Both the position numbers and the translations under genes were made by a program. From the NCBI GenBank assembly GCA_964571525.1, contig CAZNBY010000001.1, positions 90,329 to 154,328 on the forward strand: a DNA stretch of 64,000 bases, given 5' to 3'. Origin of the DNA: an uncultured Planctomycetota bacterium (GTDB lineage: Bacteria > Planctomycetota > B143-G9). Below the pieces are notes generated by a model, which did not search any database, was not told the origin of the DNA, and saw nothing but the letters and a program-made list of their open reading frames with translations. The stretch's first letter is position 1. Each line of letters starts with the position of its first letter. This document shows positions 8,150-60,119 of the stretch, piece after piece.

Positions 8150-8269
8150 CTGATACCTCCAATGGCATTTTACGGCTTTCGCATCCTGCGGCAAAGAACT
8201 CTGTTTTCTACAGGATATTTCCTGTGGCCGCTTATGTTTACGGTGCTCCAAAAGCGTCAAATGTCTGGT

Positions 8270-8307: not shown

Positions 8308-8350
8308 GCTCTTAGAAGCTGTCCAAAGCCCCTTTAGAAGAGGCATAACT

Positions 8351-36295: not shown

Positions 36296-36316
36296 GTGTA
36301 ATCCCCTTAATTCGGG

Positions 36317-38026
36317 CTATTCGTCACCTTCGTCTTCTTCGTCTTCTTCGTCGTCTTCTCCACCGCCATCATCTCCCTCTGAGCTAATTCTGAGAGAATT
36401 GCTAACAAGAAAACAGCGCGTAAAGCCAGAACGAAGCACTTTGAAGAAAACCCATTTGAGTGACTTATCGCCAGCCAATTTTTGATATAGCTGCTCGATA
36501 CCCGCCTTAGTGGTTGGGGTTTCGTTTTCAATCGCCAAGATAACATCACCTATCCTTATTCCTGCATCGTAGGCACTTCCTGTTCTGTCAACAAACGATA
36601 CAAAAAAGCCCTTGCCTTGCTTAAAACCGCGGCGTGCCGCCTCGCGAGGCGTTAGGGGCTTTAAGGAAATCTCCCACATGGTACAAAGGAATTCGAAATC
36701 TCCCTCCTCTGACCATTCTTGAGGTGTTACTTTTACAGTAACCGATGAACCGTTGCGGTCGAGTTTTAGCTCGACATTAGAACCAGTCTTAAGTTCAGAA
36801 AGACGGCGACGCACAACGGCAAGGTCATCGTTGTCACGGGCTTCCACCGGAGAAGGGCCGACTGTGAGCAACACATCCCCCGGCTTCACTCCTGCCTTGT
36901 CTGCGGGCGAATCTGGAGCAACATAGGATACAAGAACCTTGCCGCTCTTGCCCTCAACATCAAATGTCTGAAGATCGAATCCAAGGTAAGCACGCGATAC
37001 ATGTCCCTGTGCAACAATATCGTCCGCAACCTTCATTGCGTAACCGATTGGAAGGCTGAAGTTAAGGTTTTTCACATACTCATAATTGAACGAGAAATTG
37101 CGGTATAGGTCTTCAGTGCTGAGCCAGTGCATGTTTACAGCTACAACTTCGCCCTTTGAGTTTGCGGTCGGGCCACCTTCAATTCCTCTGCTTATCGGAG
37201 AGCTGACTTGATAGAAAACTGAGTTTGTACCGGCAATCTGTCCATTACGAAGTGTGAATTCAAGAGATCTGTTAAGGTTTGATACTGCGCCGCGGAAAAA
37301 AGCTGATTTCCAGCGATGTGATGCTCCGGCGGTGATCACAGGTTCACCAAGCCCCACTTCAGTGCAGATTTCGACAACTGATATAGCACTGGGGTTGTCA
37401 ATCAGCGACATATCAATTTTCAAAACGCCTATGTTTGAGTCAGCATCGCCACCAATGACCTTTGCGCGGGTGATTTGCTCGTCCGGCAGAGTTACAATTG
37501 CGTAATCTGCACCGTCAACCGCATTGTAAGTCGTCAGAATATAGCCTTCGTTTTCGCGCTTGCCGGTCGGCATGAAGAAGAAACCCGAATATGGGCGGGA
37601 ATATGTATTGGCGACGCGCTTTGAATCTACGATCTCGTAGTAAACAGGCTCTACATAAGCCAGCGACTTTGCCACTTTCTTGCATGCATTTGGCACTTCA
37701 TTGAGGATGATCTCGTCAATGACCTTTTTTACATTCACATCCGTTTTCTTCGATTCGTCAATGCGCTTATCAATCTGAGATTTAAGCGTCGTCCAATCGT
37801 TCTGGTGCCGCTTTATATCGAAATTGTGCTCTGCCAAGCCGAATCTGACGGATTCGGAAATTGCGATTAACGCAATTATGGCAATAACCGCCAACACGAC
37901 ATTCAGCCAGAAAACTGGGGCAAGCCCGAGAAACTGCGCCGGTTTGACGACAGCCGGGCGAAACGGAATCGGCCTTATCCGCTTCTTTGCGCTTGCCGTA
38001 TCCTGCTTTGGTCTTCTTGCAGACAT
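36317..38026 (-). CDS. HtrA/DegP-like pseudo-protease, TM-anchored, two PDZ-like regions, poly-acidic C-terminal tail
   Basis: Trypsin-fold core with His->Asn (ILTTYNAV), Asp->Asn (SNIGVLKI), Ser->Glu (SRGIEGGPT); C-terminal EGDDGGGEDDEEDEEDEGDE. Confidence 0.7.
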   Translation of the reverse strand: MSARRPKQDTASAKKRIRPIPFRPAVVKPAQFLGLAPVFWLNVVLAVIAIIALIAISESVRFGLAEHNFDIKRHQNDWTTLKSQIDKRIDESKKTDVNVKKVIDEIILNEVPNACKKVAKSLAYVEPVYYEIVDSKRVANTYSRPYSGFFFMPTGKRENEGYILTTYNAVDGADYAIVTLPDEQITRAKVIGGDADSNIGVLKIDMSLIDNPSAISVVEICTEVGLGEPVITAGASHRWKSAFFRGAVSNLNRSLEFTLRNGQIAGTNSVFYQVSSPISRGIEGGPTANSKGEVVAVNMHWLSTEDLYRNFSFNYEYVKNLNFSLPIGYAMKVADDIVAQGHVSRAYLGFDLQTFDVEGKSGKVLVSYVAPDSPADKAGVKPGDVLLTVGPSPVEARDNDDLAVVRRRLSELKTGSNVELKLDRNGSSVTVKVTPQEWSEEGDFEFLCTMWEISLKPLTPREAARRGFKQGKGFFVSFVDRTGSAYDAGIRIGDVILAIENETPTTKAGIEQLYQKLAGDKSLKWVFFKVLRSGFTRCFLVSNSLRISSEGDDGGGEDDEEDEEDEGDE

Positions 38027-38037
38027 TGCTTCACCCT

Positions 38038-39759
38038 CTATTGTATATCAACGAAAATGAATATCTTCGCATTGCCGCGAAGAACCTCGAACACCGTTGG
38101 TGGAACCGCACCGCGTCCGATGTATCGGTTTATGTGTTGGATAATTATGTTGCGCATGTGATCGTGGGTTTCAGGTTTAACTCCGCACACTCGGAGAATT
38201 AGATCTCCCCTTTGAAATCCATACGGCTTGAGGTTGATCACATAGCGCGCATAGTTTTCAAGGCGCGAAGTGCCATCATTCCAGGCGCGTATGGCGATGC
38301 CGCCGTCGTCTTCATCAGGAAAGCCAGCCATCTCAAGGTCAGCCTCTGAGACCTTCTCGAAATACGCACCCCAAAGAATTTCTGCAAATTGCTTAAATGG
38401 TTGTTCTCTTCCGGGGAAGCCAATGCTGCGCATGGTCGCAGTCTTCTCTTCTCCAGTAATGTAGTTGCGCCAAGTAAGCTCGAACTCGGTCAGCACTTCA
38501 TTCATTTCGAACAGATAGTTTATGCGAGCAAGGTCGGCAAGGGTCTTTATGGTTGTATATTCCTCTGCCCCTGTCTTTATGTTGCGCACCTTTGTTACGA
38601 CATCGCCAGGGCGAAGCCCCGCTTCGTATGCCGGGCTTGATGATTCAACAGCGATAACCGGCGCACCGTTTCGGTTCTCCATACCGAAGAACGAAAGCGG
38701 AGCAAACGATACGCCTATTTTTGAACGATTGATAAAAGTGGTCGAGCCTGACTCATGTGCACGAACGATACGGTTCACAATGTCGCGCTCGTAGTTTGAC
38801 GCGATCGCGTAACCCACTCTCTGGAATTCGAACCATCCCAGAGTGTTCATACCAATAACCTTGCCTTCGATGCTCACCAGGGGGCCGCCGGAATTTCCGT
38901 GGTTGATTGGCGAGTCCATTTGGAAAAACACATGCTGCTGGTGTGCATAATGATTGCCAAGCATCATGGGAATAAAGCGATTTAGCCCGACTATTATTCC
39001 GAAAGATACCGACCTGCCAAGACCTTGCGGAGCACCCATTGCCATGCAGAATTCACCTACACGGATCTTGTCGCTATCGCCGAACTCGGCAGGACGAATG
39101 TTTGCTGCCTTTGATGTGTCGCGAAGTTTGATAACAGCAATGTCGCAAAAATCGTCTGCGAAAATTATGTCGGAAGGCACGATTTCCTGATTTGAGAGAA
39201 TTGACTCGACAATAGTTGCGCCTTGTACCACATGGAAATTTGTGACGATGTAGCCCTCGCGACGGTCGGTGTGGTGGTCGGGTCTAAATATAACTCCTGA
39301 ACCTGTACCATTGTTGCAGCTTACCATTACAACAGCGGGATAGACAATCTTGCGGGCGTCGGTTATCTTTTCGAACACCTTGTTCATAAAGTTCGTTGCG
39401 CGCTGCTCAGACTCGTCAACGATCTCTATCTTGCCTGCGTCAGCCTCCCAACGCTTTAGCTCGGGAGCAATGTCCTGAACTTCTTTTTCAAGCTTGTCTT
39501 TCGCCGTCTCGGCCTTTGCTTTGACCTTAAACGCGCCAATCGCGACACCAAGCAGCGATAACGCGATGATTAGAATGACAGAAATCATCGCGCCGGTCTT
39601 TGGGACCGATTCCTCCTGCTCTGCTGCGATCGCATCGGGGTCAACCGAGTATTCGACCGACAATACAGCTCCGCACTCAACGCACTTGTAGAGCTTTGCG
39701 GGATCCAGTTTGTCTGAATCGTAAACCGAACCGCATTTGCAAAATAATGACCTTGCCAT
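38038..39759 (-). CDS. HtrA/DegP-family serine protease with N-terminal MJ0042-type zinc ribbon and TM anchor (catalytic triad intact)
   Basis: Start ATG 39759 (GGAGGT RBS); Zn ribbon MARSLFCKCGSVYDSDKLDPAKLYKCVECGAVLSV; His (IVTNFHVV), Asp (DIAVIKL), Ser (NHGNSGGPLV) all present; PDZ domain. Confidence 0.8.
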   Translation of the reverse strand: MARSLFCKCGSVYDSDKLDPAKLYKCVECGAVLSVEYSVDPDAIAAEQEESVPKTGAMISVILIIALSLLGVAIGAFKVKAKAETAKDKLEKEVQDIAPELKRWEADAGKIEIVDESEQRATNFMNKVFEKITDARKIVYPAVVMVSCNNGTGSGVIFRPDHHTDRREGYIVTNFHVVQGATIVESILSNQEIVPSDIIFADDFCDIAVIKLRDTSKAANIRPAEFGDSDKIRVGEFCMAMGAPQGLGRSVSFGIIVGLNRFIPMMLGNHYAHQQHVFFQMDSPINHGNSGGPLVSIEGKVIGMNTLGWFEFQRVGYAIASNYERDIVNRIVRAHESGSTTFINRSKIGVSFAPLSFFGMENRNGAPVIAVESSSPAYEAGLRPGDVVTKVRNIKTGAEEYTTIKTLADLARINYLFEMNEVLTEFELTWRNYITGEEKTATMRSIGFPGREQPFKQFAEILWGAYFEKVSEADLEMAGFPDEDDGGIAIRAWNDGTSRLENYARYVINLKPYGFQRGDLILRVCGVKPETHDHMRNIIIQHINRYIGRGAVPPTVFEVLRGNAKIFIFVDIQ

Positions 39760-40024
39760 CGTACCTCCGAGGCAGGCGATAAAACAATGATTCTGCGTGA
39801 CTAATACCGAATTATAGGCTCTTTTGACAGCCGACAAACAATTATGTAGTGTTGAACTCAATAAGAGGCTATTCTATCTGTTCGTCGTGCAATCTTAGGT
39901 CACCTACAATTCAGTAAGACGAACAAACCGCTTAGTATGTTTCACCAACTTGCTCGCTAACAATTATCCTCGATCCAATGCGTACCCATTCGGCAATCCG
40001 CGCCCGATGCAAGCTCATTTTTAG

Positions 40025-45229: not shown

Positions 45230-46342
45230 CTATTCCTCTGACTTTTCTGCATCGTTCTTCTTGGTGCGATTCTGTGGCTTATCACCTGTTTTAGTCTTAA
45301 TCGGCTTTTTGTTACGAAGTTCTTCAAGCATCTTTGCTGATTGGCGAAGATCCTCTACATAATGGGCTTCGGCGGCGTTTTCAGCCGCAATTCTGCGCTT
45401 TTCAGCATAGTTCTCATATTGACCCTCCGCCCAATCAAAGGCATCCTCATGGCTGATTGTGCCCGTTCCATCAAGCACCGGCAGTTCTGTATCAATCAGA
45501 AACTTATCAAGATATACTTCCCAATCGTGCATTCTTATGTTCTGCCGCCTCATCGCACGAAATTCGGCTTGATCAAGAAACATGACTGTTATGCGGTTAA
45601 GTGTATCTATCTCCTTTTCATCAAGGTAATTCTTCGCGGTCACTATATCGCGCTTCAGCACTTTTTCGCCCTTCCATGAGGTCAAGCCCATATTCGGCTT
45701 ACTTGAATCAGCGCGCTGTCTGACTATCTCCGCAGCGGTCATTCCTGTTGCAGCATAATGCATCTTGTTCTGCATCGTGGCAAAAAACATCTGGGTCTCG
45801 CGTTCACCCTCCATATAGTCGCATGCAAGTGCAAAAATCTCACGAATGCGCTGATATACGCGCGCTTCGCTCGCCCGAATGTCCCTTATGCGCGCAAGCA
45901 GTTCGTCGAAATAGTCAACTATACCAACTCTGCCCTTCAACCTCTCATCGTCAATAACAAATCCCTTGACAATATATTCACGCAACCGCGCAGTCGCCCA
46001 CTGGCGGAACTTTGTCGCGACCGGCGATTTCACTCGATATCCTACCGCAAGGATCATTTCAAGACTGTAATGCTGTATCTTGCGTGTTATCTTCCGTTTA
46101 CCCTCTAATCGAACTATTAAGTAATCCTTAACAGTTGCCTCTACCTTCAACTCACCCTCAGTATAGATGTTCCTCAGATGGATGTTGATGTTTGGAATCG
46201 TTGTTTGGTACAATTCTGCAATCTGGTTCTGCGTCAGCCATACAGTGTCGCCATCGAGCATCACTTGTATGTGACTTCTTCCGTCTTCAGTCTGATAGAC
46301 GACTATCTCGCCACCAGGACGCGGAGCATCCATTTGATTCAT
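45230..46342 (-). CDS. RhuM-family protein (virulence/genomic-island-associated family)
   Basis: Characteristic N-terminal block VVYQTEDGRSHIQVMLDGDTVWLTQNQIAELYQTT...HYSLEMILAVGYRVKSPVATKFRQWATARL. Confidence 0.7.
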   Translation of the reverse strand: MNQMDAPRPGGEIVVYQTEDGRSHIQVMLDGDTVWLTQNQIAELYQTTIPNINIHLRNIYTEGELKVEATVKDYLIVRLEGKRKITRKIQHYSLEMILAVGYRVKSPVATKFRQWATARLREYIVKGFVIDDERLKGRVGIVDYFDELLARIRDIRASEARVYQRIREIFALACDYMEGERETQMFFATMQNKMHYAATGMTAAEIVRQRADSSKPNMGLTSWKGEKVLKRDIVTAKNYLDEKEIDTLNRITVMFLDQAEFRAMRRQNIRMHDWEVYLDKFLIDTELPVLDGTGTISHEDAFDWAEGQYENYAEKRRIAAENAAEAHYVEDLRQSAKMLEELRNKKPIKTKTGDKPQNRTKKNDAEKSEE

Positions 46343-46623: not shown

Positions 46624-48072
46624 CTATTTCTTCGGCTTGTCCGCCTTGCCATCTTCGTCGCTAATCATATCGAATATTGTAAAGTTGCCCATATCCGGTT
46701 CGTCTTTCCGTTCTGGTTTTGTCTGGGCAACAGGATTGCGGAGTTTGCGGTTTGTTCCGTTTGTCTTAGGGTCGGCATCTGGCATCTTGTCGGCTCCCCC
46801 TCTGAAAAACCCTGTCGTGCCTGCCGCTGCACTGCTCTCATCACCATTGCGGTGTACATAGTCGAAGTCAACAAATTCCTCAAGCTTCTCACGCTTTTTC
46901 AAAGGTTCGCCGGTTGCTGCGGTGGGCATGAACTCAAACACATCCGGTTCTATGTCCTCCACAAAAGTGTCCTCCTCCTTTGCGTGCTGCTGGGGTTTTG
47001 GTTGAGGGTTACTTTCGGGCGCTTGTCTTTCCTCAACTATTGTGGAGGCGGCAACAGCTTGTTTGCGCTCAGGGCCAAGCACAAGAAGGTATGAATAACT
47101 GCCTCCTGCACAGAATAAGGCGATCGCAAGCGTAACGGGAAACGCAAACGACAGCATAAGCGCCGCAATGAACAAATAACCTGCCGATGGTATGCGTTTT
47201 ATTCCGTATCTATCTATCGGCGATGTGTTTGTGTTGGCGTTCAGCCTCGTGGCAAGGTTGTTCGCAAACGAAGAGGGGAGAATGCTGTCATCAGATATCA
47301 CAGCCACACAATCGGCAAGAAGGTTGTCTTTGCCGATAACCTCCAACTCGAGCCTTGTTCCCATCACAAGCGACGACGAATCCAAGGCGCGCTTCACGGC
47401 AATCTTCCATACCGGAAAAAAGATAAACCAGAACACCAAAATCGTTAGAACTAACCATAGAGCAGCTTGGCTGAATGCCTTAAAAGCCCTTTCGCTTATC
47501 ATCGTGTAAAACTGCATTGCCAGTTTGCGTGGCGATCCACCCATGCGCTCGGTGTGTGGCACCCAAAGAAAGAAGTAGAAAAGCACAGCTAAAACTACCA
47601 GAATGTTGAACACAAAGGTGAAAAACAGCACGATGTACAACGCAGGAAATACCCAGATAGGCAGTTTTGAGAGCGTAAATAGATAGACTATTCCGGTTTG
47701 AAGCATGTAGATTACAAAGAACCCGCCGATGAAGATAAACGGGGCAGCAAGGTATGTGAAAGGCGCTGATAAGACAGCAGAAAAGAAGGTCTTTTCGCTG
47801 TTAGGCGTTATAAGCGCGTTGTTAACATCAAAGGCAATCGAGGTAACTCCCCATGTCAATAACAGGAAAAGAAACGACTGACCGAAAAGGCCGATGGGGA
47901 ATTCACCAGTGGGAGAGCCCGACTTGAGCGAGCGAAGCAGAAGCAAAACGGCAATTTCGAGTATTATCACCGAGACAGCAAACGCAGTAAAAAGGGCGGA
48001 GGGCTTAAACAGCACCTTCGACGCCTCGAGCGTCTTGAAGAAGTCTATCTCTGTCCGCGGTCGTAATGTCAA
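46624..48072 (-). CDS. Polytopic membrane protein with charged disordered C-terminal tail (hypothetical)
   Basis: Multiple hydrophobic segments; C-terminal Glu/Lys/Pro-rich region; no recognised family. Confidence 0.45.
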   Translation of the reverse strand: MTLRPRTEIDFFKTLEASKVLFKPSALFTAFAVSVIILEIAVLLLLRSLKSGSPTGEFPIGLFGQSFLFLLLTWGVTSIAFDVNNALITPNSEKTFFSAVLSAPFTYLAAPFIFIGGFFVIYMLQTGIVYLFTLSKLPIWVFPALYIVLFFTFVFNILVVLAVLFYFFLWVPHTERMGGSPRKLAMQFYTMISERAFKAFSQAALWLVLTILVFWFIFFPVWKIAVKRALDSSSLVMGTRLELEVIGKDNLLADCVAVISDDSILPSSFANNLATRLNANTNTSPIDRYGIKRIPSAGYLFIAALMLSFAFPVTLAIALFCAGGSYSYLLVLGPERKQAVAASTIVEERQAPESNPQPKPQQHAKEEDTFVEDIEPDVFEFMPTAATGEPLKKREKLEEFVDFDYVHRNGDESSAAAGTTGFFRGGADKMPDADPKTNGTNRKLRNPVAQTKPERKDEPDMGNFTIFDMISDEDGKADKPKK

Positions 48073-48085
48073 AATGCCTGTCTTT

Positions 48086-48844
48086 CTAACTCAAGTCCTT
48101 CTTTTGTGCGAGTTTGTTGTAGATAATCAAATCGTCAACACCGTTATACAGGCCCGAGGAGAGCACCAGCAAAACCTCGTCACCAAACGAGTGAAGGCGC
48201 AGATTTCCCTTTGCCATGCTTAGTTCTAATGTGCCGTTACCACCGATACTGAACGAGTCGCCGAAATACTTCGCAACTTTGTGAAGATAATAGAACGAAT
48301 TAGAGATCATCTCTGCATCGAATTCCGTTGGGCATTGGGCTGCAAGAAGCATTGCATCGCGGGAGAAGATGAATGCGGCGATAATCTTTCTTTGGCGGAA
48401 CACATCCTCAAGCGCTGGCACATACTCCGAGTCAGCAAATCTTCGCGACGATGGAGCAGGGGCGGGGGCCACTTTCTGTGCGCGTATTTTAGAGCCGTGT
48501 TCTACCACTTCCTCAACCGTCTCTGATGTTGTCGTCTCCTCGTTCGTCTCGCGCACTTCCTCAAGCATTTCGGTGCGCTTGTCGGGCTGAGACCCTCTAA
48601 CAGGGCGCGGCATGCCGGTGTTATCAACATCCATTATCGAGCCGCACTTAGAGCAACGGAATCGAATACCGGGCTTCATGCTTCGCGCATCGAACATCGC
48701 TCCACATGCAACACATGCGATAGAGCGACCGCCCGGCACCGTCAGATACATAGAACAACCGCGGCACTTAATTCTTGTGCCCGGCTTCAGCTTTTCAACG
48801 CTGTAATCCCTGTTGCATTCTGTACAGGTTATGATCTTTGCCAT
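48086..48844 (-). CDS. Tandem MJ0042-type zinc-ribbon protein with C-terminal roadblock/LC7 (MglB-like) domain (tentative)
   Basis: Two ribbons (MAKIITCTECNRDYSVEKLKPGTRIKCRGCSMYLTV; IACVACGAMFDARSMKPGIRFRCSKCGSIMDV); C-terminal alpha/beta segment assigned to roadblock fold from pattern only. Confidence 0.4.
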   Translation of the reverse strand: MAKIITCTECNRDYSVEKLKPGTRIKCRGCSMYLTVPGGRSIACVACGAMFDARSMKPGIRFRCSKCGSIMDVDNTGMPRPVRGSQPDKRTEMLEEVRETNEETTTSETVEEVVEHGSKIRAQKVAPAPAPSSRRFADSEYVPALEDVFRQRKIIAAFIFSRDAMLLAAQCPTEFDAEMISNSFYYLHKVAKYFGDSFSIGGNGTLELSMAKGNLRLHSFGDEVLLVLSSGLYNGVDDLIIYNKLAQKKDLS

Positions 48845-49005
48845 TTCGTCTTTTGTCCGTTATTTACGCACGAGGGGAATCGCGCGCGGGGGAAGGCTGG
48901 GTGTAAAAAAGTCAACCGTATAAGCAAGTGATTCGAACGAATCAAGTCTGCACAATATATATGATTGCGCTTATTCTGTCAAGTTTCACGCTTTGCGTGC
49001 ATTCT

Positions 49006-51231
49006 TTACGAAAGAAACGAGTCGAGCACACCTATCAGCGCGCCGCTTACTCCCTGCTTTGTAAAGTCGAAGTCGGTGCGCTTCTTTGTCTCGTCAATTC
49101 CATACTTACCAAGCGCAGTGCCGACTTTCCAGCTAAGCGTCCCTTCCCGATACAGCACTGCAACACGATGGCGGCGAAACTTGACAAGTGCAAGAGATAA
49201 AGCATCAATTTCAAGGTCCTCAAGCGACGGATCAGGCAATCCAATTATCACGGCACCCATCGCGCGGTCGAGTATGTTTTCTGCCTCAAAAGAGTCCATT
49301 TCGTCGTAGGTCATGCCAATCACATAAAGCGTGTTCTCAATATCGCCAGCGAGTCGCGTTAACAGGCAGTTGTCGTTGTTTGTTAAAGACACCGTTGCGC
49401 CAGTAAGATTTGAAAAATAGTCTGAAAGGTCATGCACATTGCCCAATACGATTATACACAGAACATTTGCGCGCGAGTAGAACGCCTCAGAAAGAATCCT
49501 GCCTGCCTTAGAAAGCGCCATCTCTCGCGCAACAGGCGAGTTTTGAAGTCGGCTTGCGAACTCCTCCCTGGCTTCTGGCGTTAAAATCATCCCGCTTATC
49601 TTTGCAAGTTCGACCTGCATCATCTCAACCACATCGGGCGGGAATCGTTGTATCAAGCGCGGTGCTTTGGGCTCCTCTGCTTTCTCGACAACAGCAGATT
49701 CGGGCTTCTTTTCCTCTACCTTATCATCCTCTTCAACCTCTTCTTGGATGACAAACTTCGGTACATCATTCACAGGATCATCGTCAAACAGCTCTTCTTC
49801 GTCAATCTCTGGCTCATTTGCTTTCTGTTCGATTTCGATTTCAGGTTCCGGCTGTGACTTTGGCTGTTCGTTGTATTGAAACTGCCTTACATCAACTTCA
49901 TGTCCTTGTGCAAGCGTTTCAGATACAGGTTCTTCAATTTTGCTGACGGGAATCGTTACCGTCTCGTCGGCATCAGCATACGAAGGAGTTTCGATTTCTT
50001 GCTTGCCTTGCGGTTCTTGCGCAGGTTGAGCAACTTCTGGCACAACTGACGGAGTTTGAGAAGGCTCTGGCTGCCATGCGGGAGCCTGCGGTTCAACGGC
50101 AGATTGAGATTGCGTTTCTGTTGATGGTGTCTGTGCTGCATCAGGCGCGGTTGCCGGTGGTTGAGAAGCCGAGGCAGCAGGTTTGTTGGCCGCCTGCCGG
50201 GCCGAGCGACGGTTCTGAGCAGGTGTCGGCATACCTTCAATGACCGACTTCACTCGTTCAAGCTCGTTGCCGATCCACTTTATGCTGTCTTCGACCTTGC
50301 GGACTATAAGCGATGCCTCTTCAATGTTCTCGTCTTCAAGCATCTTTTCGCCGTTTGCGATCATTGTCTCGCACTTGCCTACCGCATAGGGTATATACTT
50401 CTGCGCACCCTTTTCGATAAGCGCAGAAAACGCGGATTTGTGTCCGTCAAGCTCGCTCTTTATGGTCTGTTTGCGCGACACAGTGTAGGTGTCGAGCTTG
50501 CGCGAGAATTCGAGCAGCATGAACATCTGCGAACGCTGAATGTTCTCAGCACGAAGTTGCTCACCCTCTATGAATTCGAACCTCGCGCCAGTCGCTTTTA
50601 CAAGGTTGTATATTGACTGAACTCCCTCGTCCATCTCGTCGCGTGCGAAGGACATCACGCCTTTGCGAAACCATATCTGTGTTACAGAGGGGCCGGATAT
50701 AATGCGCAGAAGTCCAGTTCGGTTTGTCGTATTGAGAAGCTGCACAATGTCAGAGAACTGGCGTGGGTTAAACCGCCCGATAAGGCTCGCCTCAGAAAGC
50801 ACATCCATTCGGGTCGAACGGTTCAATACTATCTGTACCTTCAGCCTTAAAAGCTCATTATTGACAGGCAGTTCGAGGTAGTCATCGGCACCAGCGTTGA
50901 CAGCCTTTTCGAGTGCCGCTGCGCCCTCATCATACCCAACTAACAGCACGGGCAGGTTGCGCAGAAAGTGAGATCTTCTCACTTCGCTTGCAAGTTTGTA
51001 GCCATCGAGTTTTGGCATTGCAGTAGCAGCGATGAGAAATTCGAAACGCTCTGAGAAAAGACAATCGAGCGCGGTTTGACCATTGAGCGCTGTGCGCACA
51101 AGAAAGCCGTACGCTGATAGCGAGTGCGATGCAGACCCTAACCAAGCCGCATCGTCTGTCGCTAATAGAAGACGAGAGGATGAGTTACCGTTGACTATCA
51201 TGTTGTGCATATTATAGCGATAACCTTGCAA
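49006..51231 (-). CDS. Atypical receiver-domain protein with DUF4388-like domain, long Pro/Gln/Glu-rich disordered linker and C-terminal alpha/beta domain
   Basis: Receiver-like N-terminus has acidic pocket (LLLATDD) but phosphoacceptor position reads FLIAATAMP; DUF4388-like block TGLLRIISGPSVTQIWFRKG; about 250-aa low-complexity linker. Confidence 0.5.
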   Translation of the reverse strand: MQGYRYNMHNMIVNGNSSSRLLLATDDAAWLGSASHSLSAYGFLVRTALNGQTALDCLFSERFEFLIAATAMPKLDGYKLASEVRRSHFLRNLPVLLVGYDEGAAALEKAVNAGADDYLELPVNNELLRLKVQIVLNRSTRMDVLSEASLIGRFNPRQFSDIVQLLNTTNRTGLLRIISGPSVTQIWFRKGVMSFARDEMDEGVQSIYNLVKATGARFEFIEGEQLRAENIQRSQMFMLLEFSRKLDTYTVSRKQTIKSELDGHKSAFSALIEKGAQKYIPYAVGKCETMIANGEKMLEDENIEEASLIVRKVEDSIKWIGNELERVKSVIEGMPTPAQNRRSARQAANKPAASASQPPATAPDAAQTPSTETQSQSAVEPQAPAWQPEPSQTPSVVPEVAQPAQEPQGKQEIETPSYADADETVTIPVSKIEEPVSETLAQGHEVDVRQFQYNEQPKSQPEPEIEIEQKANEPEIDEEELFDDDPVNDVPKFVIQEEVEEDDKVEEKKPESAVVEKAEEPKAPRLIQRFPPDVVEMMQVELAKISGMILTPEAREEFASRLQNSPVAREMALSKAGRILSEAFYSRANVLCIIVLGNVHDLSDYFSNLTGATVSLTNNDNCLLTRLAGDIENTLYVIGMTYDEMDSFEAENILDRAMGAVIIGLPDPSLEDLEIDALSLALVKFRRHRVAVLYREGTLSWKVGTALGKYGIDETKKRTDFDFTKQGVSGALIGVLDSFLS

Positions 51232-51333
51232 TTTGCAAACACCTTGACAACATGCGCTTGCAACAGCGCATGCGCCGAAAATTAGACAAAATCTGTGTAT
51301 CGAATTGTGTCAACAGGCGTATAATACTAATGT

Positions 51334-52929
51334 ATGGGGCCTAAATCGCCTATTACTATCGCGTTGGTAACGCTTTTGTGCGTTATCGCGGTGCAGTGTT
51401 CGTTTTACCGCTTCGCAAGCGCTTTCGAGTTCGATTGGCGTGTCTTTGTGCGGGGCAATGAACGGGCGTTGCTGCCTTCCGCGCCCTCCTCATTCGACAT
51501 TCCCTCACAAGGTCTTAGTCTGACACCACAGTGTTATTGCCGAATTCTTTCGTTTAACGGAACAGCAAACGACATTGTGCGCGACTCGGTTCTGACTATT
51601 GCCACAAAAGACAAAACCGCCCCCACATCGGATCAGTGGCTTGCATACGCACTGATGCAGAATGACTTTCGCCGCCCCCCGATTGCCGGTCTTGACAGAA
51701 GCGGAGCAAATGGCCTCGCACTGCTCTTCGCTCTCAACTCAGCACCTGATCGCGATATGCTGCTTGATTCGCTCGATATGGCAAGGCTCGTAAAGTGCGA
51801 CCTTATCCCTGCCTATCTATATTCATTGGGCGCGTACGGAGACCGCATCAAAGAGGCAAAGTTCAACGCTCTCGCCTCTGCGGTATCGCGTGATGACAGG
51901 GTATTTCTATACGCAATTGCGGCAAAGTACCCCGACCTTTTTGGCGAGTTTCTGCGCAAGGCGGTGAAGGAATCCCCACCGTCCGAGTCTGCCATCGCCC
52001 TTCTCGCAATCTCAAAGGCTGCCCTTCCCATTGGGCAGGAAGAGCTTGCCGAGATAATCCGCAAGATACTTCTCACAAACGACTACTGGGCAATCATGCA
52101 CGCTGCGCTGGCGATGACAGCAATATATGATCCCTTCAGCACGCGCTTGTTCGAGAACTTTGTAACCAGCGACGACCTTGCCCTCGCCTCTTGTTGCGCC
52201 TTGGCAATTGGCGCAAACCTGCCTGCAGTTGATGTCGCCCGCTGGTATGGCAATGAGGGGCTTCAAGGTGTGGTGCGCGGTCATCTTGTGCTCGGTTGCG
52301 CAAAAAGGGAGGGCGCTGAGTTCGATGCTCTAATTGACGCCGCACTATCATCCTCAGAGGCAGTTTTGCGTGAACTTGGGGCAATCTCAGTGGGTCTGCG
52401 TGGCGAAAGGCTTTTTAGATTGAACGCCCTGTTTCAGGATGCGTCTTATGAAGTGAGGGCGTGCAGCGCAATTGGCGCGGGATTCCGACGCGAACGCTCG
52501 ACCTTTGGAGTATTGAAGAGCTTTGTGCAGGATAAGCATCATGAAGAGCTTACCGCCATCGCCTCGTTGTTGCTCGGTGCTCGTCCGTCCGATGCAGCCG
52601 CGCGATTGCTAACAGGTGTTGATGAGTACTTGTACGAACGCGAGCGCGGCTCTGCTTTCGTCGCGCTTGGCGCAGTTTCAAAGCAGTTATTCAATGAGGC
52701 TGCACCACGCCATCTTAAATCGGCGAAAACACCATATCTACGGCGTATGATTGCAATCGGCGGGCTTCTTACCGGCGATTCGCGCTGGCTTGTTGAACTT
52801 GACAAAGCTCTGTCTGAATATGCTGAATACCGCCCATTCGGGCATCCGGTCGCGCTTCGTTTCGAGGCGCTTTCTTCGCTTGTAAACGACCCGTTCGACT
52901 ATCTGCTTGAATATTGTTGGGAAAGATAG
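51334..52929 (+). CDS. Secreted helical-repeat hypothetical protein
   Basis: Signal-peptide-like N-terminus MGPKSPITIALVTLLCVIAVQC; alpha-helical repeat composition. Confidence 0.4.
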   Translation: MGPKSPITIALVTLLCVIAVQCSFYRFASAFEFDWRVFVRGNERALLPSAPSSFDIPSQGLSLTPQCYCRILSFNGTANDIVRDSVLTIATKDKTAPTSDQWLAYALMQNDFRRPPIAGLDRSGANGLALLFALNSAPDRDMLLDSLDMARLVKCDLIPAYLYSLGAYGDRIKEAKFNALASAVSRDDRVFLYAIAAKYPDLFGEFLRKAVKESPPSESAIALLAISKAALPIGQEELAEIIRKILLTNDYWAIMHAALAMTAIYDPFSTRLFENFVTSDDLALASCCALAIGANLPAVDVARWYGNEGLQGVVRGHLVLGCAKREGAEFDALIDAALSSSEAVLRELGAISVGLRGERLFRLNALFQDASYEVRACSAIGAGFRRERSTFGVLKSFVQDKHHEELTAIASLLLGARPSDAAARLLTGVDEYLYERERGSAFVALGAVSKQLFNEAAPRHLKSAKTPYLRRMIAIGGLLTGDSRWLVELDKALSEYAEYRPFGHPVALRFEALSSLVNDPFDYLLEYCWER

Positions 52930-52982
52930 ACCCTTTCTGGCGTCTAATAGACATCTCGGGGTATTTTGTGATGGAGATTCGT

Positions 52983-55520
52983 ATGAAAAAGCTATTGTTC
53001 GCTATTGCCGTTGCGGTTTGCCTTGCCATCTCGTTTTCGACCAACGAGGTCGGTGGCGAGATGCCCAATGTAAGCCAGCTTCTTTCAGACCGCGCAGCCA
53101 ATTTCAGCCCCACGCCGACGCCCCCGCTCGACTTAAACGAGCGCAGTTGGGAACGCTGGTGGCGTGGTAACCGCGCACCGTTGCTCGTTGACCTTACACC
53201 CGCATTCAAGGCACCGGTGATTGTTGACGGCCAGCCCACGCGCACACCCACAAGCTACGAAGTCTTCCCGTCAAAAAAGCCTAAGTCAATTGTCTCAGAA
53301 GACAAGGTCAATACGCTGCAGATTCTTGTGTTGCTCGGTTACGGCGGCGACTTCAAAGAGATAACACGCGAGATGGCTTTGACAGAGCTTGAAGCCCGCG
53401 GAGATAAGGCTCTTGACGAGCTTATTGAAATTGCGTCGGGCAGACAAGTGCTTGCGCCCATCGCCGGTATGTCGAGCCGCCAGCTTCGCAACTACGCCGT
53501 GCTCGCCTTAGGCGAAATCAAGTCCCCTAAAAGCTTCGATGCGCTCGTCGAGGCATTCAATAAGGGAGAGCAAGAGACTCAGTTCTTCGCCGCTATTGGT
53601 TTGGGAAGGCTTGGAGACAAACGCGCGGTCAAGGTGCTTACAGAAAATGCCGGTGCGCGCAACCAGTTCCACAGCCCCGCCGTCTGCCTCGCGCTCGGTA
53701 TGCTTGGTGCGTTCGAGGGTTTCGACTTTATGAAGCAGACCTTTCAGCACGGAGGCGCAAACGAGGAGCGTCTGTTCGCGGCGCTATCTCTTGGCATGCT
53801 CGGTGCAAAAGACCCGCGCAAGACACTTATCGAAATTGTTAAAAATGGCAGCGACCCACTTGAAAAGGCCCTTGCCGGTTTTATTTATCTGTCTTTCTGC
53901 GAACCAAAGTCAAACGAACCCGCCGCTGTCGCCTCGCTGCTTGAGATTAACGACGACTTCACCCGCGTGATTACGCTAATGGGCATGGGTATATTGATGT
54001 ACCGCGATAATCTCGATAGAGTTTTCGATATAGCGAAGAATATGGAGACCACGCCCGAAGTCGCAAAAGCTGCGATGCTGATGCTCGCGATGAGCAACTC
54101 AAAGGACGGCAACACGCTTCTTGTTAAACTGCGCGATTCACTGCAAGACGAGCTTAAGGCCGCCGCCGAGTTTGCGCTCGACCTGATGGAGAATAAAAAG
54201 CGCGCTAACATACTTGAAAACTGGTCGCTCGTAAAGGACAAACAGATCCGCCTGCTCATGCCATTTGTCTTGGTGCGATATTTGGGCGAGCCCGCTGTTG
54301 TGAACATGGACCGCGCGGTCAAGTTGGTACACGATTACAACCCGGGCTATCTCGCTCTTGCCTATGGATGGGCGTTTGAGGTCGGCAAACCCGCACCGAT
54401 TTCCAAGGTGCTTACAGCAGAGAAAGTCGAGCATCGAGCCTGCGCAATTGCCGCACTCGCCGTTTCACGCACAAATGTCACCGTTGACATGCTTACTAAA
54501 TTAGGCGTTCCCGACGGCCCCGAGCAGATGGCACTCAACCTATCGCTAAAGGCAATCGCGCCCAATATCATTCTCAAGTTCTTCCGCGACAACCCCCAGC
54601 GCGGCAATCCCCGTGTATGTGTTGGCATAGCCACAGCACTTGGCGGGCTGCAATGCGAGGGCGTGGAAGACGAGCTTGACCAATACATATCCTTCTATCA
54701 CCCTGATGTGCGATGCTACGCCTACCTTGCGATGGGAAGGCTTGGCACAAAGGCCGCTGCAGATCGCCTTATCGGCAGATATGGTGCTGAAAAGCATCCG
54801 TTCGCACTCGGCAACCTTATCCTCGCTGCGGGTTTTCTGTTAAGGCAACTGCCGCAGGATAAGGATATGTTAGAGATCGTTCGGGGCGGAATGTACAACA
54901 CAGCGCATGGCGAGGCACGCGCTTACGCTTCGTTGGCATGGGGCGTGTCGCACGATATCAATCGCTTCGATATGATTGGCAGCATATTCGGCACCGACCG
55001 CGACCCGCGCGTAATGTCGGCAGCGGCTCTCGCCTTTGGCCTGTCTGAGCACGAAAGCTCTGTCTTCTCACTGCGCCGTGCGCTTGAGGTTAAATCATAC
55101 AAACAGGTGCGTGAGTTCGGTTGTTTCGGCCTCGGTGTGCTTAAGAACCGCGACACGCTCAATTCGCTGCTCGATATGGTGAAGGATAAGGATAATGATG
55201 TGCGCATAGCCGCCACGGTCTCAATTGGCGCAATGCGCGACAACGCCTGCAAGGGCGTGGTAAAACCGCTTGCCGAAAGCGATGGCAGCATGAGCGTGCG
55301 CCGCCTTGCCTCGGTCGGCCTTATGCTGCTTGAGGACGGATACGGTTTCGAATGCTTTATAAATTCATTCAAGGGACGCGGCGACGAGGCCATACGCGAG
55401 ATGGGCTGGGTAGAGCTTACCGAGGTTTCGAACCTTTATATGCCGGTAGGTTTTAAGATTGATGACTACCTGCAAGACCTTGCCATTCCCGAGGAAGCCG
55501 AAGAAGGCACAAAGAAATAG
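52983..55520 (+). CDS. Secreted HEAT (PBS-lyase-type) repeat protein
   Basis: Start ATG 52983 (GGAGA RBS, signal peptide MKKLLFAIAVAVCLAISFS); many repeats of A-x-x-ALG-x-IG/LG pattern. Confidence 0.6.
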   Translation: MKKLLFAIAVAVCLAISFSTNEVGGEMPNVSQLLSDRAANFSPTPTPPLDLNERSWERWWRGNRAPLLVDLTPAFKAPVIVDGQPTRTPTSYEVFPSKKPKSIVSEDKVNTLQILVLLGYGGDFKEITREMALTELEARGDKALDELIEIASGRQVLAPIAGMSSRQLRNYAVLALGEIKSPKSFDALVEAFNKGEQETQFFAAIGLGRLGDKRAVKVLTENAGARNQFHSPAVCLALGMLGAFEGFDFMKQTFQHGGANEERLFAALSLGMLGAKDPRKTLIEIVKNGSDPLEKALAGFIYLSFCEPKSNEPAAVASLLEINDDFTRVITLMGMGILMYRDNLDRVFDIAKNMETTPEVAKAAMLMLAMSNSKDGNTLLVKLRDSLQDELKAAAEFALDLMENKKRANILENWSLVKDKQIRLLMPFVLVRYLGEPAVVNMDRAVKLVHDYNPGYLALAYGWAFEVGKPAPISKVLTAEKVEHRACAIAALAVSRTNVTVDMLTKLGVPDGPEQMALNLSLKAIAPNIILKFFRDNPQRGNPRVCVGIATALGGLQCEGVEDELDQYISFYHPDVRCYAYLAMGRLGTKAAADRLIGRYGAEKHPFALGNLILAAGFLLRQLPQDKDMLEIVRGGMYNTAHGEARAYASLAWGVSHDINRFDMIGSIFGTDRDPRVMSAAALAFGLSEHESSVFSLRRALEVKSYKQVREFGCFGLGVLKNRDTLNSLLDMVKDKDNDVRIAATVSIGAMRDNACKGVVKPLAESDGSMSVRRLASVGLMLLEDGYGFECFINSFKGRGDEAIREMGWVELTEVSNLYMPVGFKIDDYLQDLAIPEEAEEGTKK

Positions 55521-55536
55521 CACTTTGCATAATTGT

Positions 55537-55566
55537 AAAAAACCCCGCTTTCGGCGGGGTTTTTTG
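55537..55566. terminator. Bidirectional rho-independent terminator between convergent genes
   Basis: AAAAAA-CCCCGC-TTTCG-GCGGGG-TTTTTT. Confidence 0.8.
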
Positions 55567-55589
55567 TCGCTATATCGAGTTTTAACGGA

Positions 55590-56996
55590 TCAGAACTTGA
55601 TGTTGGCAAGGAAGTTATCAACCTCGGGTATGCCGCCCTGGAAGACAAGGTAACCATTTGAAGGCTCGCCCTCGGTGATATCGTGGCAGATGGGGTTCAA
55701 CATGATCTTCTTAACTTCCTCGCGGTCCTCTGTCTGGCCAAGTGCCCAGCCGAGCTTCATATAGGCCGTCTCGGGCAGCATGTTCGCGCACTGCACAACG
55801 CCCAGCTCAAGAAGGTCGCGCCCCGTATCGTACACAAACATCTGCACAAAGCCCCACAGCGTCTGCACGGTCATATAAATATGCATGCCAGAGTCAACGG
55901 CGCGCTTAAGCGCGGGATTGAGCTTACGGTTCACATGCCCAAGACCCGTGCCAGCTATGATAAGTCCCTTGTAACCGTTGTCGCGCAACGAGTCAACAAG
56001 GTCGGGGTCCATGTTCGGGTAATAATATAGTATCGAGACGCGGTCGTTAAAGGTCGGCATGAGCTTCATCTTGCGGCTCTTGTCGCGCCTCTTGTAGTCG
56101 TTCTGTATTGGCTTTATCCAGTTAGGCGACACCATGCCCAGCGGCGTATCACCAATCGTGCGGAATGTAGAACGGTATGACGAGTGCATCTTGCGCACCC
56201 TTGTGCCCCTGTGCAAAAGGTCGTACTGGTCGCTTGTCGGGCCGAACATGCAAACCATCACCTCGGCAAAATCGCTCAATGCGGCGGTGCGAACAGCGTT
56301 GACCAGATTTATCGCCGCGTCGGAAGAGGGTCTGTCGCTCGACCTCTGCGAGCCCACCAACACCACCGGTACGGGCAGGTCTTGGCACATATATGTCAGA
56401 ATCGAGGCCGAATAGTGCATTGTGTCAGTCCCGTGGCCGATCACAATACCATCAACATCGTTCTGTTCTATTTCGTTGTAGATCTCTTGCGCGATGACCT
56501 TCCACTGCACCGAAGACATATCTTCAGAGAATATGCCGAAGATTTTACGCGTTCTCAAATTGCATATATCGGCAAGCTCTGGCACAGCGCTGTAAAGCTC
56601 ACCGGGTGAGAATGCCGGTATAACGGCACCGGTGCGATAGTCAAGGCGCGATGCGATAGTTCCGCCTGTGCCGAGCATGACAACATTGGGGCGGTTTGGC
56701 GAGTATGGGAACTCTTTTTCTGGTATCTTGTACTTGCCCTCTTTGAAGCCAGTTTCGCGAATATCAATTATGCTATTGACGGCGACACCGGTGTTGTAGC
56801 CCGTCGGCAGCTTCAACACAAGGTAACCATCTGGCGATTGCTCGGCGCGGGGCAAAATGATACCGACAAAGGTGCCTTGCATAGCGCGCACAACAACATC
56901 GCTCCAGACCTTAACGCCGAAGCGCTTCATGCACTCTATCGAGTCGCCTTTGTAACCTTTGTACAGCTCTTTTTCAGCTTGAGTTATCGTTGTCAC
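55590..56996 (-). CDS. L-asparaginase-fold protein with GatD-like N-terminal domain (Glu-tRNA(Gln) amidotransferase subunit D-like)
   Basis: Asparaginase motifs TGGTIAS and HGTDTM; about 100-aa N-terminal extension (GYLVLKLPTGYNTGV) resembling archaeal GatD; start set at GTG 56996 with GGAGA RBS. Confidence 0.6.
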   Translation of the reverse strand: MTTITQAEKELYKGYKGDSIECMKRFGVKVWSDVVVRAMQGTFVGIILPRAEQSPDGYLVLKLPTGYNTGVAVNSIIDIRETGFKEGKYKIPEKEFPYSPNRPNVVMLGTGGTIASRLDYRTGAVIPAFSPGELYSAVPELADICNLRTRKIFGIFSEDMSSVQWKVIAQEIYNEIEQNDVDGIVIGHGTDTMHYSASILTYMCQDLPVPVVLVGSQRSSDRPSSDAAINLVNAVRTAALSDFAEVMVCMFGPTSDQYDLLHRGTRVRKMHSSYRSTFRTIGDTPLGMVSPNWIKPIQNDYKRRDKSRKMKLMPTFNDRVSILYYYPNMDPDLVDSLRDNGYKGLIIAGTGLGHVNRKLNPALKRAVDSGMHIYMTVQTLWGFVQMFVYDTGRDLLELGVVQCANMLPETAYMKLGWALGQTEDREEVKKIMLNPICHDITEGEPSNGYLVFQGGIPEVDNFLANIKF

Positions 56997-57191
56997 GACA
57001 TCTCCACTGTTGGGTGATGAACGGGGGCAAACCGCCATTCTACCGGCCGTTAGGGCGCGCGCAACTAAAAGCGGGGGCGGGGAAAGGGGGGAAGTGCAGC
57101 TTCCTTTGTTGACAATATAAAATCAACGCTAAAATACATTCATCAGCATGATTTCGCGTCGAAGGCTTTCTCGCACTACAGTTACGCTATA

Positions 57192-57222
57192 CCTAAGACT
57201 GTATTTTTACACTAGTCTTAGG
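57192..57222. repeat. Perfect 9-bp inverted repeat (CCTAAGACT-N13-AGTCTTAGG) 30 bp upstream of the DUF262 gene
   Basis: Read directly; lies in the 5' leader/promoter region of the 57254 CDS. Confidence 0.6.
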
Positions 57223-57253
57223 AATAATCTCTTACCCAAAACCGGAGATTCCA

Positions 57254-59212
57254 ATGCAGGCCAAAGAGACTAAGCTACAAGACATGATCGAAGGTACTAA
57301 GCAATATGTGGTTCCTCTTTTCCAAAGAACATACAGTTGGTCAGAAACACATTGGGAAACCCTTTGGAAAGACATCTGCGATATCTATGAGTCTGATTCG
57401 AGAAAGAGCCACTTCATTGGTTCTATCGTAAGTATGCAGACTACATCTGTACCGCAAGGTGTATCAAAGTTCCTTCTAATCGACGGGCAGCAGCGGCTAA
57501 CCACAATTTTTATCATCCTTACTCTCCTGCGGGACAAAGCGAATTCAAACAATAATACTGTATTTGCTGAAGAAATAGCAAACACATTGCTTGTTAACCC
57601 ATACAAAAAAGACTACGACTATTTCAAGCTCTTGCCTACACAACACGACCGAGACAATTATAAAGATCTTATTAATGGAACACTGTCAACCTCTAACAAC
57701 CGCATTTCTCGTGCATACCGCTATTTTGATAATAAATTAAAACAAACTGATTTTGACATTGAAAAGCTAAAATCAATTATTTCAAGTGACCTTTCTGTTG
57801 TCAGTATAACTCTCGACGCTGATGATAACCCATATCTTGTTTTTGAAAGCCTAAACGCAAAGGGAAGTCCTCTTACGCAGGCAGACCTGATCAGAAACTA
57901 CTTGTTCATGCGGATTCATGTTAATGACCAAAACGCAATTTTTGATAAATATTGGCATCCCATGCAAACAGCATTAGACGATAAACTCACAGAGTTCATT
58001 CGCCACTATTTAATGGATAAGGGAAGCGTTATTCGTCAATCTGATGTATATTTTACCATTAAGGAGGCGGTATCTGCTGACAATGTTATTGATTACATGA
58101 AGCAAATGCATATATATTCACAATATTATAGTCGCCTGCTTAATCCTGACGAGGAACCTGAATCGTCCATAAGAAAATATCTTAAGCGTTTGAATATAAT
58201 CGAGGTGACAACAGCATATCCATTTCTGCTTAGGATGTATAATTATTATGGATGCGGAACAATCAGTAGAAGTGATTTCGTCCAAATATTATCTACCACG
58301 GAGAACTATTTAATCAGGCGTCTAATTTGCCATGTCCCAACAAATCAGCTTAGTCGTATTTTCGCTTCTTTATACCCACAGATTAAAGGCATCGCTGGCC
58401 CTAATATACCAAAAGAATATGAGAGTCTTCTTGTAATGAAGCAATATCCACGAGACTCTGAGTTTCGCGCAAAATTTAAGGAATATAGATTTTACGCTGC
58501 TGGTGAGCGGGCGGCAAGGGCGAAATTGGTACTTGAATCAATAGAGAACAGCTTTGGGCATAAGGAACACATTGATTACAATAATGTTTCTATTGAGCAT
58601 ATCATGCCTCAGGTATTGACATCTGAATGGCGGAAGGACCTTGGTGATGAAGCACAAGATATACACAGCCTTTTGCTTCATACTATCGGCAACTTGACGC
58701 TCACAGCATATAATTCGAATCTATCAAATAGCGAGTATCCATCCAAGAAGAAGGTATATCTGCAGAGTCATCTTGAAATTAATAAGTACTTCGATGGTGT
58801 TGATGTTTGGAATAAGGAGAGCATCGAAAAGCGAGCTGATGTGCTGGCCGGAATCGCAATGAGAATCTGGCCATATTTTGGAGTTGAATTTTCTGAACAG
58901 AGTGTTACAAACACAAAACCGAAATCTGTTCGAATATTAGGTCAAATATTTGATGTCGACTCATGGCGAGATGTGCTTGAATGCACGATGAACACCGTTG
59001 CGGAGCTTGAGCCTGCGAAATTTAACCGGATAATCAGTAGCTACCCCCGATATTTTAGCAAGCATCAGGACAAGTTGAGATGCGTGCGGAAGTTAAGAAA
59101 TAACCTGTTCTTAGAGGTTAACCTGTCCGCGAACGACATTCAAAGATTATGCCATCAGGCGATTCAGAGCATCGAACTCACTAGCGACGAGTGGTCCGTC
59201 GATTATGAATGA
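57254..59212 (+). CDS. DUF262 (ParB-like NTPase) + DUF1524 (HNH/His-Me finger) protein, GmrSD-like type IV restriction candidate
   Basis: N-terminal DGQQRLTT motif; C-terminal IEHIMPQ ... GNLTLTAYNSN nuclease-like motifs; gene is conspicuously AT-rich compared with flanks. Confidence 0.7.
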   Translation: MQAKETKLQDMIEGTKQYVVPLFQRTYSWSETHWETLWKDICDIYESDSRKSHFIGSIVSMQTTSVPQGVSKFLLIDGQQRLTTIFIILTLLRDKANSNNNTVFAEEIANTLLVNPYKKDYDYFKLLPTQHDRDNYKDLINGTLSTSNNRISRAYRYFDNKLKQTDFDIEKLKSIISSDLSVVSITLDADDNPYLVFESLNAKGSPLTQADLIRNYLFMRIHVNDQNAIFDKYWHPMQTALDDKLTEFIRHYLMDKGSVIRQSDVYFTIKEAVSADNVIDYMKQMHIYSQYYSRLLNPDEEPESSIRKYLKRLNIIEVTTAYPFLLRMYNYYGCGTISRSDFVQILSTTENYLIRRLICHVPTNQLSRIFASLYPQIKGIAGPNIPKEYESLLVMKQYPRDSEFRAKFKEYRFYAAGERAARAKLVLESIENSFGHKEHIDYNNVSIEHIMPQVLTSEWRKDLGDEAQDIHSLLLHTIGNLTLTAYNSNLSNSEYPSKKKVYLQSHLEINKYFDGVDVWNKESIEKRADVLAGIAMRIWPYFGVEFSEQSVTNTKPKSVRILGQIFDVDSWRDVLECTMNTVAELEPAKFNRIISSYPRYFSKHQDKLRCVRKLRNNLFLEVNLSANDIQRLCHQAIQSIELTSDEWSVDYE

Positions 59213-59378: not shown

Positions 59379-60119
59379 CTACAACAGAGCACAGCATACT
59401 CCTGTCGGCATTTCATCCCAAGTTTGCCCTTCCAATAAACGCCCAGCCTTCTTTTTGTGAACCCCTCCCCATTGTTTGAAGAAGAACGGGACATTTGCAG
59501 CGACACACTGATCGCGTATATCCAATACCCACTTCTCTGACATTGGCCTTGCGCCTGGGCCAGATTCACCGCCAACTATCACCCAATCAATGCCTTCAAG
59601 GTTCAGGTTCGGTATCGGCCCGAGAAGGGGCTCTAAGGACAGGAATTTTAAAAACGCCCCTGTATTGCGAAGGTCGTCAATACGGTGTATGTAGTCTGCT
59701 GTTTCAACGCTCGTTCCCATCCAGATGTTGCTGGCCCAAGTCAGGGATTGGCTTAATTCGAGCGTTCTTTCCGGCCGCTTTGTCAGGATCTGAAATTGAT
59801 GCCAGTGTGCCCGGTTCATTACATCGAAGGCTCGTTCGATAAACCATACCGGCACATCTGCGTGAAACAGGTCGCTCATAGAATTGACAAAGATAACCTG
59901 AGGGGTTTTCCAATGCAAAGGTAATTCGAGTGTGCGTTCGTGTATTGTAAGACGAAAGCCATTTACATAATTAGCCTGCCCCATGGCTTGCAGTCGCTTG
60001 GCCATGCGCTCGGCGTAGCAGTGTTTGCAACCTGGGCTGACTTTTGTGCAGCCGGTTACAGGATTCCAAGTGGATTCAGTCCACTCGATTGAGGACTTAG
60101 TGCCCATGGTTCTCCCCAT
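59379..60119 (-). CDS. Phage Gp37/Gp68 family (DUF5131) three-Cys-motif protein
   Basis: N-terminal [27 protein letters not shown] signature. Confidence 0.55.

Follow-up and report, generated by a model that had tools for sequence, protein, structure and literature searches.

A stand-alone gatD gene in a Planctomycetota genome is an intact member of a bacterial GatD clade that is usually linked to gatE

Background

GatCAB is the usual bacterial tRNA-dependent amidotransferase. GatDE, by the account of reviews published up to 2022, is an archaeal signature enzyme that is "now only found in archaea" (PMC2330236, PMC9499178). In the archaeal enzyme, two GatE subunits are bound by a GatD dimer, and ammonia moves about 40 Å to GatE through a tunnel (PMC2330236, PMC9499178). 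The catalytic Thr of archaeal GatD is carried on a mobile hairpin that keeps it off the active site (PMC2330236, PMC9499178), and it is for this reason that archaeal GatDE displays no glutaminase activity unless Glu-tRNA(Gln) is present (PMC2330236). With respect to its tRNA, the archaeal enzyme recognises the A1-U72 pair of tRNA-Gln (PMC2330236). Our literature search, which extended to reviews of 2022, retrieved neither a description of a bacterial GatDE nor biochemical data for any such enzyme.

Here, we report on a gatD gene found in a 64-kb stretch of DNA from an uncultured Planctomycetota bacterium (referred to below as the window), which is part of a 382,543-bp contig. The initial annotation of this gene, made from the sequence of the window, regarded it as an orphan that lacks its GatE partner and that may act as a free glutaminase/asparaginase.

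Results

The gene lies on the minus strand of the window. Its longest form in the ORF map (55590..57038) opens with an ATG and specifies 482 amino acids (aa), while a GTG at 56996, read from the sequence as lying five bases 3' of a GGAG ribosome-binding site (57002..57005, same strand), defines a coding sequence of 468 aa (55590..56996, with the stop codon at 55590-55592). The 468-aa product is the public protein P0001 (100% identity and coverage), and its length is that of a GatD, as had been pointed out before, rather than the approximately 330 aa of type I asparaginases. Three Pfam domains follow one another on the minus strand: the GatD-specific N-terminal domain (PF18195, GatD_N; aa 34-79; 56760..56897), which scored 36.8 bits (cut-off 25.7), the asparaginase N-terminal catalytic domain (PF00710; aa 104-295; 56112..56687; 193 bits), and the asparaginase C-terminal domain (PF17763, Asparaginase_C; aa 319-432; 55701..56042; 114 bits). 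Both asparaginase motifs listed in the initial annotation, TGGTIAS and HGTDTM, are present in the translation, and the N-terminal extension that it had likened to the GatD N-domain is borne out by the PF18195 match. The residues T110-G-G-T113, H188-G-T190-D191, and R268-K269 of the catalytic domain do not vary among bacterial and archaeal GatD. Inspection of the translation by eye showed no signal-peptide-like N-terminus.

Downstream of these domains, the protein ends in a stretch of about 26 aa (EGEPSNGYLVFQGGIPEVDNFLANIKF; 55593..55670, minus strand), a C-terminal extension specific to the bacterial GatD clade described below. Its motif, EPxNGYLxFQGGxPE, occurs in all bacterial relatives and is lacking in the three archaeal GatD of our set as well as in the solved chains 1ZQ1 and 2D6F. 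The extension was modeled with low confidence in the monomer.

The transcriptional setting of the gene was examined on both sides. About 25 nt past the stop codon, between gatD and a convergent HEAT-repeat gene, we identified a palindromic hairpin made up of an A6 tract, a GC stem, and a U6 tract (55537..55565), with a folding energy of -20.1 kcal/mol (z -4.1), which is likely to be a two-way intrinsic terminator; a consensus terminator scan of the window did not flag it. On the 5' side, the intergenic region (57039..57253 according to the ORF map) is shared with a divergent GmrSD gene, and a consensus promoter scan found no sigma-70-like site in it. Since the upstream neighbour is divergent and the downstream one convergent, with the hairpin in between, gatD is a single-gene unit.

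The question of whether this gene could be an ordinary bacterial type I asparaginase (AnsA) bearing a chance N-terminal extension was settled by profile, sequence and fold comparisons. The protein does pass the type I asparaginase subfamily model TIGR00519 (373 bits; cut-off 260.5), but the GatD equivalogs NF003217 (491.4 bits; cut-off 310) and TIGR02153 (478.6 bits; cut-off 324), whose matches span aa 46-456 of the 482-aa form, score higher, and it falls under the cut-offs of the AnsA equivalog NF006998 (134.6 bits against 376) and of the AnsB models TIGR00520 (161.6 against 314.3) and NF008304 (143 against 506). Among PDB sequences, the best matches were the GatD chains of Pyrococcus abyssi (1ZQ1; 382 bits) and Methanothermobacter thermautotrophicus (2D6F; 374 bits, with an alignment running over query residues 15-442 that includes the N-terminal extension), as compared to 134 bits for the best asparaginase among all of them. 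The AlphaFold2 monomer model (pLDDT 76.8) gave a concordant picture, as Foldseek matched it to GatD chains over approximately 440 columns (E 1e-46 to 6e-44) and to asparaginases over approximately 349 columns (E 1e-23 or weaker). Its lowest-confidence loops (aa 111-130, 218-224, and 271-282) are also the most conserved ones, which is weak evidence that they may become ordered only within an assembly. Overall, the GatD_N domain, the equivalog scores, and the PDB and fold matches rule out an AnsA with a chance extension, a reading to which we accord a negligible probability. The placement test offered with the initial annotation, namely affiliation with ordinary type I asparaginases and lack of a GatD N-domain, thus came out clearly in favour of GatD in Pfam, NCBIfam, PDB, and Foldseek comparisons alike.

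The DNA that surrounds the gene is bacterial, as indicated by ParA/ParB-like starts, sigma-54 regulators, PatA_N response regulators, and HtrA-like proteases; a Brocadiia metagenome-assembled genome (MAG) supplies the closest relative. The gene is therefore not in the archaeal host to which reviews tie GatD, a point that concerns the distribution of the protein and not its structure. By scanning species-representative genomes, we obtained 61 GatD loci, nearly all from bacterial MAGs, distributed over Krumholzibacteriota, Fermentibacteria, Latescibacterota, Bacteroidales, Bdellovibrionota, Zixibacteria, Acidobacteriota, Planctomycetota, and Calditrichota. A protein search agreed with the genome scan, and many of its matches are already named GatD by their sources. 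The window GatD is 60-81% identical to its bacterial relatives and 37-46% identical to the three archaeal GatD. Neighbour-joining separated the bacterial sequences, as a single group, from the three archaeal ones; within that group, the window protein and P0002-P0005 make up a nested subclade with ordinary branch lengths. P0004, a GatD relative of 77% identity, has its GatD N-terminal domain interrupted by 15 additional residues. The L038 contig (7874-11410), which bears the label Thermoplasmata archaeon, encodes a bacterial-type GatD, 66% identical to that of the window, with a divergent gatE, which could reflect either misbinning or gene transfer.

We then considered the genes that flank gatD in these genomes. 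Clustering of open reading frames uncovered a gatE gene of about 648 aa in the flanks of 50 of the 61 related loci. In about 40 of them it immediately precedes gatD, often with an overlap; it is 2-5 kb from gatD in four (L001, L004, L026, and L030), divergent in one (L038), and downstream of gatD in both Zixibacteria loci as well as in those from archaea. The assignment to GatE is supported by the equivalog NF003107 (cut-off 456) for L020 (520 bits) and L012 (477 bits), while the L024 protein scored 438 bits with this model and passed TIGR00134 (381 against 319.55). The motifs of the catalytic core (GLEIHxQ, EE[DE], RQDVN, KGV, and RMYP[DE]TD) are common to bacterial and archaeal GatE. The insertion and tail domains of bacterial GatE are much more diverged, and the Pfam models GAD and GatB_Yqey remain below threshold in most members; with a purpose-built HMM, all of the bacterial GatE proteins tested yielded a YqeY-like tail (E 1e-36 to 2e-5). 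Between phyla (L012, L015, L020, L024, and others), GatE proteins are 40-48% identical as opposed to 62-76% for GatD. The GatE tail domain shows 21-35% identity even among bacteria.

Three Bdellovibrionota loci have a tRNA-Gln(UUG) gene on the same strand as gatE-gatD and at most about 35 nt upstream of it (L012 7904-7978, L014 7903-7977, and L018 7897-7971), the gap to gatE being 33-34 nt in L012 and L014. These tRNAs are of the bacterial type, with U1-A72 and an encoded CCA. The representative library also held a protein of 943 aa (P0282) in which the catalytic part of GatE, devoid of its tail domain, is fused to a full GatD; this fusion could be real, or an assembly or frameshift artefact. 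Together, the tRNA-Gln adjacency and the P0282 fusion tie the bacterial clade to Gln-tRNA(Gln) synthesis.

The situation is different in the window. As the initial annotation had stated, a GatE-like gene is absent from it: a tblastn search of the 64 kb with 44 GatE proteins detected no GatE/GatB-like sequence (best E 0.07). Likewise, no Gat subunit or aminoacyl-tRNA synthetase was recognised by Pfam among the 30 neighbouring proteins, and the window contains neither tRNA genes nor Rfam matches. The same arrangement extends to the subclade of the window gene, which comprises, in addition to the window itself, the P0002 group, found in six assemblies, P0003, P0005, and the Brocadiia MAG JBAZOJ01 (loci L047 and L061). 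Related MAGs are GCA_053995315.1, GCA_053939605.1, GCA_053989655.1, GCA_053988915.1, GCA_054010475.1, and GCA_053940725.1. None of the members examined has gatE in its available flanks (10 kb per side in contigs that were long enough, less in the short L067, L068, L070, and L071), and in all of these relatives (76-81% identical) gatD is a single-gene unit with variable neighbours. Given that all of them share a lone gatD in differing surroundings, the split between gatD and gatE must be old in this subclade. A lone gatD was seen in L016, L017, L062, and L064-L070, and a second bacterial clade of this kind is formed by L016 (chromosome OY769902.1 for this clade), L017, and L044. The G+C content of the window subclade varies widely, from 49 to 67% (66.6% in L062 and L064, 49.3% in the window), at a GatD identity that is still 76-81%.

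Compared to related genomes, the block that bears gatD is inverted over about 49 kb (window positions 1293-8260 and 46624-56996 were compared with L064). One of the breakpoints is the intergenic region upstream of gatD, and genes of mobile or defence type stand at both ends, namely GmrSD (57254-59212), DUF5131 (59379-60119), and RhuM (45230-46342). Elsewhere in the window, positions 7949-12697 hold a 1582-aa open reading frame with no Pfam match at E 1e-4 or better, and positions 34166-39861 hold three tandem genes for trypsin-like/PDZ proteases, at least two of which have Cys-rich N-termini that look like zinc ribbons.

Loci of the reverse kind, with gatE and no adjoining gatD, were also found. 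They are L072 (473-2416; GCA_964554005.1) and L073 and L074 (811-2742 and 816-2747, respectively; both GCA_028279585.1). The gatE of L072 and a downstream radical-SAM/SPASM gene share 14 nt, and the GatE proteins of all three loci still match the Pfam GatB_Yqey tail model. The existence of separate loci for both genes, a lone gatD in some cases and a lone gatE in others, is what would be expected if the pair is merely unlinked in some genomes. A search with a GatE query returned Krumholzibacteriota-like proteins exclusively among its best 120 matches, while the representative library contained about 40 deep bacterial GatE lineages. The contexts of five GatE candidates were inspected, three of them being operonic (P0398, P0400, and P0247) and two stand-alone (P0259 and P0269); none of these five is the GatE of the window lineage. 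Two ways of pairing the window GatD with a GatE candidate were tried and abandoned. Mirror-tree matching failed its leave-one-out control for isolated lineages (ranks 14-22 of 25), and filtering by amino-acid composition was dropped on account of the G+C range of the subclade.

The extent to which the window gatD has been conserved was assessed at several depths. With its L062 orthologue the protein shares 79.7% identity, as compared to 37-64% for six syntenic neighbours, and the dN/dS ratio of the pair is 0.078, with dS near saturation. It retains 74 of the 77 columns that are invariant across bacteria and archaea, and 101 of the 108 that are invariant in bacterial GatDs having gatE in their locus, which makes 175 of 185 clade-invariant positions in all, with every change being conservative; its branch length in the GatD tree is ordinary. 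The window gatD is thus under strong purifying selection and is the most conserved gene of its neighbourhood. One position stands out. Residue 195 (codon at about 56412-56414), which follows the HGTDTMH motif, is a Tyr in the window subclade, in the L016/L017/L044 clade, and in archaea, whereas a His occupies it in each of the 44 bacterial GatDs whose locus also contains gatE. From the sequence comparison, this exchange could mark a functional difference.

Discussion

The window gene is an intact and strongly conserved GatD. We consider it probable, at about three chances in four, that its product is the glutaminase subunit of a split-gene GatDE of the bacterial clade, a tRNA-dependent amidotransferase. 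The corresponding gatE most likely lies elsewhere in this genome rather than being missing, and we infer that the substrate is the Glu-tRNA(Gln) of this organism. If the archaeal model applies, GatE would phosphorylate the side chain of the Glu carried by Glu-tRNA(Gln), GatD would hydrolyse Gln or Asn by means of its Thr nucleophile and Thr-Asp-Lys triad, and the ammonia so released would pass through a tunnel to GatE, which would then make Gln-tRNA(Gln). In the window lineage, gatD would be transcribed alone and gatE would be expressed from a separate locus.

The main alternative to be weighed is that the gene is a true orphan, gatE having been lost or never present, so that GatD would serve as a lone cytoplasmic glutaminase/asparaginase or as an ammonia source for a different partner. 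This agrees with the single-gene status of gatD, the changing neighbours, and the lack of gatE in the available flanks of all examined members of the window subclade, as well as with the Tyr at position 195, which distinguishes the stand-alone clades from those whose loci include gatE, and with the intact asparaginase catalytic residues. It fits poorly, however, with the retention of both the GatD N-domain and the C-terminal extension, which are conserved in the operonic clade, and with a dN/dS of 0.078 and a normal branch length, which give no sign of acceleration or relaxed constraint. Moreover, a stand-alone amidase role is made less likely by the lack of glutaminase activity in archaeal GatDE when its tRNA substrate is missing (PMC2330236). 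Stand-alone gatE loci do occur in bacteria, as a simple split predicts, and the window displays only 64 kb of a contig about six times that length. We therefore hold a true orphan to be unlikely. Extending this loss to the whole window subclade, and perhaps to the L016/L017/L044 clade as well, with GatD acting as a partner-independent amidase or feeding ammonia to a different enzyme, is a slightly less probable proposition. Of the initial annotation, the GatD identity and the absence of gatE from the window stand, while the inference of an orphan, free enzyme is unsupported, as the clade usually has gatE and the gene is strongly constrained; the orphan claim rested mainly on the limited window.

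It may also be asked whether the bacterial GatDE clade, including the window gene, amidates another substrate, be it Asp-tRNA(Asn) or a molecule other than tRNA. The much faster evolution of bacterial GatE relative to GatD (40-48% versus 62-76% identity between phyla) would be compatible with such a change, as would the insertion and tail domains that stay under the Pfam thresholds in most members, and the U1-A72 pair of bacterial tRNA-Gln differs from the A1-U72 pair that archaeal GatDE recognises (PMC2330236). Against this, a tRNA-Gln gene sits directly 5' of gatE-gatD in three loci, the kinase and amidotransferase core motifs of GatE are conserved, and the YqeY-like tail was detected by the tail HMM in every bacterial GatE tested. 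On balance, a different substrate appears quite improbable. The reading as an AnsA with a chance extension has the TIGR00519 match to its credit, and it is outweighed by the higher GatD equivalog scores (491 and 479 bits), the GatD_N domain above its Pfam cut-off, the AnsA and AnsB equivalog models under theirs (135 against 376 and 143 against 506), and PDB asparaginases at no more than 134 bits as against 382 for GatD.

For the window gene alone, little changes, as it is a well-conserved member of a known family that annotation pipelines already name correctly. What is little known is the bacterial clade itself. A large and strongly conserved GatD/GatE clade that spans many bacterial phyla contrasts with the archaea-only view of the reviews, and it is characterised by the gatE-gatD order in most members, the C-terminal extension of GatD, fast-evolving insertion and tail domains in GatE, and, in three loci, linkage to tRNA-Gln. 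Should bacterial GatDE make Gln-tRNA(Gln), this would bear on the division of work between two amidotransferases and on how GatE recognises a tRNA-Gln with U1-A72 rather than A1-U72. Should the window subclade truly be without GatE, it would represent a new bacterial use of the GatD scaffold.

With regard to known systems, GatA of GatCAB has a fold unrelated to that of GatD, GatA being an amidase with a Ser-cisSer-Lys triad and GatD an asparaginase-type protein with a Thr nucleophile. Its role is nevertheless the same, that of a glutaminase subunit which feeds ammonia to a kinase of the GatB/GatE type (PMC2330236). The type I L-asparaginases (AnsA; archaeal 5OT0 and 1WLS) share with the window GatD the two-domain core and the catalytic residues, but they act as free enzymes, lack the GatD N-domain, measure about 330 aa, and are only 23-31% identical to it, at 134 bits or less. 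The bacterial MAG proteins automatically annotated as GatD, alongside GatE, have the C-terminal extension and the invariant positions in common with the window GatD; in most of them gatE is directly upstream, which is not the case in the window subclade or in the L016/L017/L044 clade. Finally, archaeal GatD (1ZQ1 and 2D6F) displays the same three-domain architecture, with a full-length alignment (aa 15-442), 42-44% identity to the solved chains, and TM scores of 0.74-0.82, and the Thr nucleophile and Thr-Asp-Lys residues (T110, T113, T190, D191, and K269) are invariant between the two. The window GatD differs from its archaeal counterparts by its bacterial host and its conserved C-terminal extension, and by a gene that stands alone, where the order is gatE-gatD in most bacterial relatives and gatD-gatE in the archaeal loci seen.
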